This document shows, one piece after another, positions 7,183 to 58,794 of a DNA stretch of 64,000 nt. The stretch comes from Octopus vulgaris (lineage: Eukaryota). The notes under the pieces were generated by a model. That model searched no databases. It saw nothing but the letters and a program-made list of their open reading frames with translations, and was not told the DNA's origin. The translations under genes and the position numbers were made by a program. The DNA lies in assembly GCA_951406725.2 (NCBI GenBank), contig OX597828.1, positions 28,892,001-28,956,000 of the forward strand. The letters run 5' to 3'. Numbering within the stretch: the first letter of the stretch is position 1; each line of letters opens with the position of its first letter.

Positions 7183-7947
7183 GGCGCGGGAAGCTGGCGG
7201 AATCGTTAGCACGCCGGGCGAAATGCTTAACGGTATTTCGTCTGCGTTACGTTGTGAGTTCAAATTCCGCCGAGGTTGACTTTGCCTTTCATCCTTTCGG
7301 GGTCGATAAATTAAGTACCAGTTACGCACTGGGGTCGATGTAATCGACTTAATACCTATGTCTGTCCTTGTTTGTCCCCTCTGTGTTTAGCCCCTTGTGG
7401 GTAATAAAGAAATAGGTATTTCGTCTGCCGCTACGTTCTGAGTTCAAATTCCGCCGAGGTCGACTTTGCCTTTCATCCTTTTGAGGTCGATTAAATAAGT
7501 ACCAGTTACGCACTGGGGTAGATATAATCGACTTAATCCGTTTGTCTGTCCTTGTTTCTCCTCTCTGTGTTTAGCCCCTTGTGAGTTGTAAAGAAATAGG
7601 TATTTCGTCTGCCGTTACGCTCTGAGTTCAAATTCCGCCGAGGCTGACCTTGCCTTTCATCCTTTCAGGGTCGATTAAATAAGCACCAGTTACGCACTGG
7701 GGTCGATATAATCGACTTAATCCGTTTGTCTGTCCTTGTTTGTCCTTTCTGTCTTTAGCCCCTTGTGGGTAGTAAAGAAATAGGTATTTCGTCTGTCTTT
7801 ACGGTCTGAGTTCAAATTCCGCTGAGATCGACTTTGCCTTTCATTCTTTCGGGGTCGATAAATTAAGCACCAGTTGCGTACTGGGATCGATCTAATCGAC
7901 TGGCCCCCTCTCCCAAAATTTCGGGCCTTGTGCCTATAGTAGAAAAG
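7183..7947 (+). mobile_element. SINE family B tandem array: one head + four 183-184 bp core units
   Basis: GGTATTTCGTCTG recurs at 7232, 7415, 7599 and 7783; the first three units end in tail 1, the last in tail 2 (CCCAAAATTTCGGGCCTTGTGCCTATAGTAGAAA). Confidence 0.92.
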
Positions 7948-15309: not shown

Positions 15310-16352
15310 TATTTTCTGAAAAGATTGGAAAGTTTTGTGAAGATTTTGATCAAAGTTTTGGAAAAGGTTTTTGAAAATTTTCTTCAATATTTTTGAAAAT
15401 TTTGATCAAAATTTTGGAAAGTTTTTTGAAAATTTAAATCAAACTTTTTGAAAACTTTTTTAAAAATTTTCATTAAAGTTTTGGAATGTTTTTTGAAAAT
15501 TTCGATCAAAATTTTGGAAAGAAATTTTTTTGAAAATTTTCATGAAAAATGCTGAAAATTTTTCTGAAAATTTTGATCAAGATTTTGGAAAGTTTTTTGA
15601 AAATTTTCATCAAAATTTTTGAAAAATTTTTTTAATATTTTCATTAAAATTTCTGAAAATTTTTCTGAAAATTTTCATCAAAATTTTGGAAAGATTTTTG
15701 AACATTCTCATCAAAATTATTGAAAAGTCTTTTGAAAATTTTGATCAAGATTTTGGAAAGTTTTTTGAAAATTTTCATCAAAATTTTTGAAAAATTTTTT
15801 TAATATTTTCATTAAAATTTCTGAAAATTTTTCTGAAAATTTTCATCAAAATTTTGGAAAGATTTTTGAACATTCTCATCAAAATTATTGAAAAGTCTTT
15901 TGAAAATTTTGATCAAATTTTTGAAAAGTTTTTTTGAAAATTTCATCAAATTTTTCTGAAAATTTCATCAAATTTTTCTGAAAATTTCATCAAATTTTTC
16001 TGAAAATTTTCATGAAAATATTGGAAAGCTTTTTGAAAATTTTTATGAAAATTTTCATTAAAACTGCTGAAAATTTTTCTGAAATATTTGGAAAGTCTTT
16101 TGAAAATTTTTCTGAAATGTTTGAAAAGTCTTTTGAAAATTTTCATCAAAATTTTGGAATGTTTTTTGAAAATTTAGATCAAAATTTTGGAAAGCTTTTT
16201 GAAAATTTTCATCAAAATTTTTGAAAAATTCTTTTAATATTTTCATTAAAATTTCTGAAAATTTTTCTGAAAATTTTCATCAAAATTTTGGAATGTTTTT
16301 TGAACATTTTCATCAAAATTTTTGAAAAGTTTCAAAAATTTTTCTGAAAATT
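15310..16352. repeat. AT-rich minisatellite, ~21-33 bp units (TTTTGAAAATTTTCATCAAAATTTTGGAAAG) with a 168-bp higher-order duplication
   Basis: GAAAATTTT/CATCAAAA motifs recur throughout; GATCAAGATTTTGG at 15575 and 15743 starts two near-identical 168-bp blocks. Confidence 0.9.
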
Positions 16353-54866: not shown

Positions 54867-54927
<61 letters not shown>

Positions 54928-55008
54928 CAATTGCAGCGTGGAATGTGTTTGTAAGCCATTTAAGAAACACACAAAAACCGTTCGATTCACTTCAACATTT
55001 AAGTTTAA

Positions 55009-55058
55009 TTTGTCAAAATATTTTCGGCGCTAAAATCCGCGACCTGTTCACTGCCAAA
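55009..55058 (-). ncRNA. Putative minimal hammerhead with G3-C8 swapped core (family H4)
   Basis: Minus strand: UUUGGCA GUGAACA GGUCGC-GGAUUUUA-GCGCC GAAA AUAUUU UGACAAA; one mismatch in helix I and one bulge in helix II. Confidence 0.45.
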
Positions 55059-55073
55059 ATCCGTGCTTACTCC

Positions 55074-55183
<110 letters not shown>

Positions 55184-55478
55184 GGAGTAAGCACATAGAT
55201 GTGAAACAGGTGGAAAAAAGAGTACTCAAATACCAGAGGTAGAGTAACAACAGCAATATGAATAACAACGATGAATAACAATAGCAACAACTACAACAAC
55301 AATAACAGTATATATATACATATACAGCCACATGTGTATATCCGTGTTTACCTTTTCACGCGTATATGTGTTTGCGCGTATCTGAACGCTACGTGTTTGT
55401 GTGGGTATGAATATGTGATTCAGTGAGCATGCGTAAGTGCATATATCTATGTGCAAGTGTTTATCTGCATGTGCGCAT

Positions 55479-58384: not shown

Positions 58385-58430
58385 AACACAACATTTCGGC
58401 TGATATACCCTCCAGCCTTCTTCAGGTGTT
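58385..58430 (-). ncRNA. Minimal Penelope-type hammerhead (family H1)
   Basis: Minus strand: AACAC CUGAAGA AGGCUG..CAGCC GAAAU GUU GUGUU. Confidence 0.75.
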
Positions 58431-58748: not shown

Positions 58749-58794
58749 GACACCTGATGAAGGCTGGAGGGTATATCAGCCGAAACGTTGTGTT
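58749..58794 (+). ncRNA. Minimal Penelope-type hammerhead (family H1), intact
   Basis: GACAC CUGAUGA A GGCUG-GAGGGUAUAU-CAGCC GAAAC GUU GUGUU; palindromic AACGUU helix III typical of PLE hammerheads. Confidence 0.85.

Follow-up and report, generated by a model that had tools for sequence, protein, structure and literature searches.

Hammerhead-like motif in the window

The window (the whole stretch of 64,000 nt of Octopus vulgaris DNA analysed here; contig OX597828.1, positions 28,892,001 to 28,956,000) bears a hammerhead-like motif on the minus strand at 55009-55058. An earlier sequence-only reading had proposed helices, a core, a GAAA and a palindrome for this site, and all of them were located there. 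Helix I is made of a 5' strand at 55052-55058, in which 55054 is G here and T in most copies, and of a 3' strand at 55009-55015, as read from the sequence. Core positions 3-9 (GUGAACA) occupy 55045-55051, with G3 at 55051 and C8 at 55046; the core departs from CUGANGA at 3 and 8 only, as had been noticed, and its remaining positions are canonical. An extra G (55044) lies between A9 and G10.1, a feature typical of the minimal hammerheads described from Penelope-like elements (PLEs; PMC4209133). Helix II with its loop spans 55026-55043: positions 55043-55039 pair with 55030-55026 (55027 is C here and A in most copies) around an 8-nt loop II at 55038-55031. This helix had been drawn as 6 bp with a single bulge in the window copy (55044-55039 with 55030-55026); the helix itself stands and its length does not, the majority form having 5 bp with one unpaired G before them. 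G12-A13-A14-A15.1 (GAAA) at 55022-55025 does not vary in any of the 15 aligned rows. The palindromic helix III segment from A15.1 to U16.1, together with U17 (AUAU-U-U), lies at 55016-55022 and would be expected to pair in a dimer only. A palindrome is present, with a true length of 6 nt (55022-55017); the 10 nt first given for it had counted in bases of the core and of helix I. Following the dimer model of PMC4209133, the cut is predicted between 55016 and 55015, at a UUU triplet.

With regard to hammerhead membership, U4, G5, A6 and A9, G12, A13 and A14, A15.1-U16.1 and H17 are all present, as are the extra base between 9 and 10.1 and the palindromic 15.2-16.2 segment, and helices I and II (7 and 5 bp in the majority form) flank the core. 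Positions 3 and 8 form a G3-C8 Watson-Crick pair; because the literal C3/G8 consensus failed (G3 and C8 in 7,171 exact copies), the motif was filed as a hammerhead variant. The window copy is slightly decayed, as had been suspected. It carries a single G.A mismatch in helix I (55058-55052 with 55015-55009), and its changes at 55054 and 55027 relative to the majority are both destabilising; the latter is also present in a few other copies. Pair probabilities for helices I and II are 0.94-1.0 in the majority form vs 0-0.3 in the window copy, for which no hammerhead fold was predicted, and this copy itself is likely inactive.

A lenient G3-C8 descriptor gave a single match within the window, at the motif site, and a match in 1 of 60 dinucleotide shuffles (mean 0.017); with any Watson-Crick 3:8 core allowed, 3 of 60 shuffles matched. 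The expectation that standard descriptors would miss the motif was borne out, as focused Rfam scans of the window copy and of the majority form returned no hammerhead family at E ≤ 10. In the Rfam scan of the whole window, the matches listed (150 of 437) were of low complexity only, mostly to miRNA models. That the motif, lying in AT-rich repeats, resembles a hammerhead by chance could be argued from this lack of an Rfam match and from the missing fold of the window copy. This reading is opposed by the shuffles, by a 17-mer that runs from helix I through the core into helix II and has 7,171 exact genome matches (control, 0), and by the fact that canonical hammerheads occupy the homologous position in sister elements. 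We consider it highly improbable, and the sister-element alignment and its covariation, presented below, have largely refuted it already. The motif is almost certainly homologous to hammerheads, judging from these comparisons.

Host element

The motif is carried by the 5'-truncated pseudo-LTR (pLTR) end of a Neptune-like Penelope retroelement, hereafter family A, at 54927-55067 (minus strand). This piece shares 93.6-94.3% identity with the two pLTRs of the tandem unit at locus L091. The first codons of the element ORF lie at 54927-54959 on the same strand, with the start codon at 54959, and the copy stops there, like about half of the copies. A (TA)n tract at 54872-54926 adjoins the 3' end of the insertion and is its likely target. 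At the 5' junction (55063-55194), the 15-mer 55063-55077 is an inverted copy of the flank at 55180-55194, across a (TA)n tract. Two matches of this 15-mer were found vs 0.03 expected by chance, and a 5-nt microhomology joins it to the element; a fold-back origin may be proposed for it. Window positions 55180-55247 are the end of a different (TA)n-associated repeat, with a 92.8% match in L002, and the 15-mer at the 5' junction is an inverted duplicate of its terminal 15 nt. Elsewhere in the window, an AT-rich minisatellite array (33/67 nt) lies at 15325-16350, with a similar array in L020, and 3.6 tandem copies of a 184-nt unit lie at 7232-7901. The latter unit presumably resembles a cephalopod SINE.

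The full tandem unit, reached through copies that extend upstream, is 4.26 kb long at L091 and consists, in order, of a pLTR with the motif, an ORF (RT, linker, GIY-YIG) and a second pLTR with the motif. The ORF starts 85-90 nt downstream of the core start. In translations of the single ORF of L091, we read the RT motif YVDD and the endonuclease motif YIGET..R..EH..E..N; the linker is CQSNCAVC (CX3CxxC), and a CCHH motif is made of two C inside GIY-YIG and of HxxxxH. Pfam and PDB sequence searches with the ORF gave no match and the RT and GIY-YIG calls are motif-based. The best protein relative carries the name Octopus vulgaris and gives a 100% match to this genome. Family A copies are inserted in (TA)n, 5'-truncated and often head-to-head, and they end at two alternative sites about 58 nt apart (optional tail). 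Neptune elements have been defined by a CX2-5CxxC linker and a CCHH motif, which is absent in Hydra (PMC8557442). By these criteria the host element would be Neptune-like and not Hydra, the clade call being motif-based, and the window copy is, from its sequence, a piece of a young Neptune-like Penelope family. The ribozyme family put forward by the sequence-only reading was upheld, and the host element that it had left unnamed can be called a Neptune-like Penelope element. A different element with RT and GIY-YIG and without the cysteine linker, Penelope/Poseidon-like, lies between family A copies at L097:3482-6788.

Family A copies in the octopus genome

When positions 3, 7 and 8 of the 17-mer pattern were left free, 8,208 genome matches were obtained (control, 12). 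The exact GUGAACA core accounts for 87% of them (7,171/8,208), which is in line with a neutral decay of about 4% per site. A downstream anchor pattern matched 9,372 times; in 8 of the 100 rows listed for it one identical rearranged junction was seen, so a single rearranged copy was amplified, perhaps as part of some other repeat. When the octopus's own genome was searched at the DNA level, 1,586 candidates were obtained, and the 40 that were scored had 91-98% identity, weak partial matches aside. Among 116 distinct aligned copies, which came from several targeted searches, many of them demanding the core, the majority state is a helix I of 7 bp and a helix II of 5 bp, both perfect. The genome majority has GUGAACA together with perfect helices I and II, the consensus that had been proposed as a check. 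The GUGAACA core is fixed in family A, in thousands of copies, and sister and related elements have C3-G8 or U3-A8 at this site; the natural core-swapped family supposed earlier is supported.

Family A comprises three subfamilies, with majorities from 27, 4 and 79 copies and a divergence of 5.5%, 1.2% and 1.8%, respectively. Between these majorities none of the 42 core and helix positions varies, as against 14 of the 154 in loops and flanks (Fisher p = 0.043), which is a modest hint that selection acted once the swap had taken place. A canonical-core ancestor within family A was absent among the 30 matches inspected of 97 changed at both 3 and 8. Most of the 30 belong to older sister families, in which the pair is U3.G8 or C3-G8; about eight were family A copies with A3/U8, A3/A8 or U3/G8, as expected from decay. 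No second independent G3-C8 family occurred among the matches listed (100 of 184) for a pattern that demanded a position 7 other than A and a fixed 3' context and is hence not exhaustive.

Under neutral decay, two independent core mutations would have been fixed in the master element and would be complementary by coincidence. This explanation is favoured by the single swap event in this genome, by the absence of a second G3-C8 family within the scope just given, and by the fact that no single-change intermediate subfamily was seen. Two random changes among about 11 core positions would, however, fall on 3 and 8 and pair with odds of roughly 1/55 x 1/3 only, and the core and helices stayed constant through three subfamilies whereas loop II changed at 4 of its approximately 9 positions. 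We therefore regard coincidental decay as quite unlikely.

Positions 3 and 8 in sister and related families

Family B, with an RT 57% identical to that of family A, is its sister at SH-aLRT 100 in a quick tree, which has an unreliable root and contained no named reference RTs. Its hammerhead is located at the same site as in family A and has a C3-G8 pair; the family B group pattern gave 4,935 matches (control, 13). In family B (L133:52-104 and the L158-L187 loci), older copies have A9 and C17, and the youngest subfamily, 99% identical and with open ORFs of up to 1,312 aa, has C9 and U17. The core change A9C thus became fixed in this highly active sister family and spread with it, which shows that active elements can carry altered cores and counts against activity of the family A motif. 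C9 was also found, together with U3-A8, in the metagenome relative L189. U17 is common to most octopus sister families, older family B with its C17 being different. Older octopus families share the helix I and II letters of family A, but have U3.G8 or C3-G8, with U3 in 13 of 15 matches in one pattern search.

From metagenomes, 57 loci were scanned strictly and 30 of them loosely, with positions 3, 7, 8 and 9 free; many other metagenome contigs are too short for a pLTR. A hammerhead was present just after the ORF in 8 of the 30 loosely scanned loci, four with C3-G8 and four with U3-A8, and four more distant loci beyond the 30 have C3-G8. Positions 3 and 8 are paired in 15 of 15 alignment rows (C-G in 7, U-A in 4, G-C in 3 and U.G in 1), with the reservation that the rows were chosen by eye as hammerhead-like, that relatives are non-independent and that the three G-C rows represent one event. 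Whole-structure covariation, with helices I and II covarying between families, was 0.723 vs 0.201 ± 0.035 in shuffled and at most 0.231 in slid alignments. Since 3 and 8 pair in every row, the G3-C8 swap is, on this alignment, compensatory, and it has one origin in this genome. The refutation offered earlier, namely that 3 and 8 vary independently from copy to copy, is not a valid test, as copies mutate neutrally once inserted; 3:8 covariation has to be tested between families.

Two further minimal hammerheads, head-to-head and with canonical C3-G8, were found in the window at 58754 (plus strand) and 58425 (minus strand). They belong to another repeat family, which is likely another Penelope-like element, and the minus-strand copy at 58425 has a change adjoining A15.1.

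5' ends of the copies

The 5' ends of the copies form no peak at the cut site (U1.1), where copies templated by cut RNA would begin. Matches without the upstream GAAA number only 524 in the genome, and of 30 loci inspected among them three start at offset 0 (two of these by microhomology), two at +1 and four at -4, some rows being internal deletions. In most family A copies the motif is complete, and the copy begins 10-25 nt upstream of helix I. In a sample of 47 copies, none extends more than 6 nt beyond this upstream start site, known long copies having been excluded at 20 of the 50 loci; among the matches listed, 7 of 100 downstream-anchor rows, counted by eye, run past that site, and an upstream 29-mer has 412 exact matches. 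As the copies hold the whole motif and start upstream of helix I, their templates appear to have been mostly uncut RNA, and cleavage is likely to be weak or dispensable for copying. For the Anolis PLE PAc, ribozyme mutants are described as having no effect on insertion, with no reads ending at the cut site (PMC11167929).

At junctions that keep AG, the next, non-element base is G in 14 of 15 cases (p = 6e-6, base frequencies assumed). This suggests a copied cap and an internal transcription start at this place, though fold-back palindromes can account for part of the cases. The 5' ends of family A cluster there, at one site some 20 nt upstream of the motif (L091:4700-4730) and often with an extra G; the site also has a real likeness to a branch point plus a 3' splice site, and no such cluster was found in family B copies. 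An intron upstream of the motif is not supported, as no upstream exon is shared among the junctions and the youngest subfamily lacks the candidate donor; the contigs of four sequencing runs contained no splice joint and no molecule ends.

These observations bear on another explanation, namely that the motif is a true hammerhead descendant with a fold still under selection and no useful cutting rate. It agrees with copies made from uncut RNA and mostly starting 10-25 nt upstream of helix I, with A9C in an active sister subfamily and C9 in L189, and with insertion of PAc in vitro, which needs no cleavage (PMC11167929). The swap would then have arisen while catalysis mattered, or the fold would act as a 5' binding or translation signal; this explanation, in either variant, seems to us less likely than not. 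A non-catalytic role has no obvious need for the tertiary 3:8 pair, yet this pair is kept in every family examined, and so are U4, G5, A6 and G12-A15.1.

Proposed mechanism

We favour the reading that the family A motif is a minimal type I hammerhead of a Neptune-like PLE pLTR in which G3-C8 is fixed and slow dimer cleavage is likely, with a probability of roughly 0.57. Confidence in activity was held to this level because of the uncut templates, the spread of A9C and the insertion of PAc without cleavage. Taken by itself, the claim that the family A motif is still catalytic has, in our analysis, chances slightly better than even.

In the hammerhead active site C3 and G8 pair and the 2'-OH of residue 8 is catalytic; G8C is reported to lower the rate 10^5-fold and C3G to rescue it partly (PMC8495972, PMC6155905), and rescue of cleavage by C3G/G8C has also been described in a PLE hammerhead (PMC11167929). 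In family A, G3-C8 would keep the pair that positions the 2'-OH of residue 8. A better performance of G3-C8 without C17 has been stated as "data not shown" (PMC3884650). Speculatively, U17, already present in sister families, may have opened the way to the swap, since with it no G3-C17 pair can compete. Minimal PLE hammerheads are described as inactive monomers and weakly active dimers with poor cleavage in vitro (PMC4209133), and because they act as dimers the same mode is inferred for family A. Two motifs, one at each end of the 4.26-kb tandem transcript, would pair via the palindromic helix III, and the paired dimer would cut after U17. The dimeric hammerhead fold has a predicted energy of -28.8 kcal/mol and each monomer -14.1; the best dimer fold reaches -32.7, and the fact that the hammerhead fold is not the dimer minimum (-28.8 vs -32.7) counts against activity.

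We tentatively propose that a catalytically active dimer would make family A the first natural hammerhead family with G3-C8 fixed, amounting to about 10,000 copies unseen by CUGANGA descriptors and Rfam, in a clade whose 3:8 pair flips between C-G, U-A, U.G and G-C. If this is true, a living ribozyme is able to pass through a compensatory swap of two transversions, here probably with the help of U17. The 3:8 tertiary pair was proven in the laboratory by the G3-C8 swap, and a natural family in which this swap is fixed lends evolutionary support to the active-site structure, with the canonical sister families as built-in controls. One genome holds three sister cores (G3-C8, C3-G8 with A9 and C3-G8 with C9), so the need for PLE hammerhead cutting is directly testable with short RNAs. 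Whole families escape searches based on CUGANGA, a point of relevance to reports that some Penelope clades are without hammerheads. About 150,000 hammerhead variants were reportedly described by Lunse in 2017.

Comparison with known systems

Within the parts of the literature drawn on here, natural U3-A8 hammerheads (PMC3088659, PMC4209133) and engineered G3-C8 were found and no natural G3-C8 family, of which an earlier mention is possible, nor any octopus PLE hammerhead. A term search of PMC6765202, PMC10085705 and bioRxiv 10.64898/2026.07.22.740005 gave nothing bearing on the core in the text covered. In PMC4209133, G3-C8 has no row in the alignment of Fig. S3, and Octopus is absent from the supplement file searched.

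The family A motif resembles the minimal type I hammerheads of PMC4209133 in its pLTR position, the extra base between 9 and 10.1, G10.1-C11.1, the short palindromic helix III and the lack of a loop-loop tertiary contact. U17 is common in that set too, with a UUU triplet in its Crassostrea row, and those PLEs likewise have thousands of solo and inverted copies. Unlike family A, the consensus given there is CUGANGA, and U3-A8 is the sole 3:8 variant named in the sections used. Regarding the host, the Neptune clade (PMC8557442) shares with family A the RT, the CX3CxxC linker and the C-terminal GIY-YIG with CCHH, as well as (TA)n targets, an optional tail and inverted 5'-truncated copies. The Octopus entries seen in that work are Naiad and Hydra families only, and family A is set in Neptune by its motifs.

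The natural U3-A8 hammerheads (PMC3088659) represent, like family A, a compensatory 3:8 change in nature. They differ in that U3-A8 takes two transitions and keeps the pyrimidine-purine order, whereas G3-C8 takes two transversions and inverts it. The engineered C3G/G8C constructs (Anolis PAc, PMC11167929; PMC8495972) have the identical core change, with cleavage partly restored, but they are laboratory products, whereas in family A the swap has become fixed in nature, in elements that were active until recently. Our verdict is that family A represents a new natural variant of a known ribozyme.
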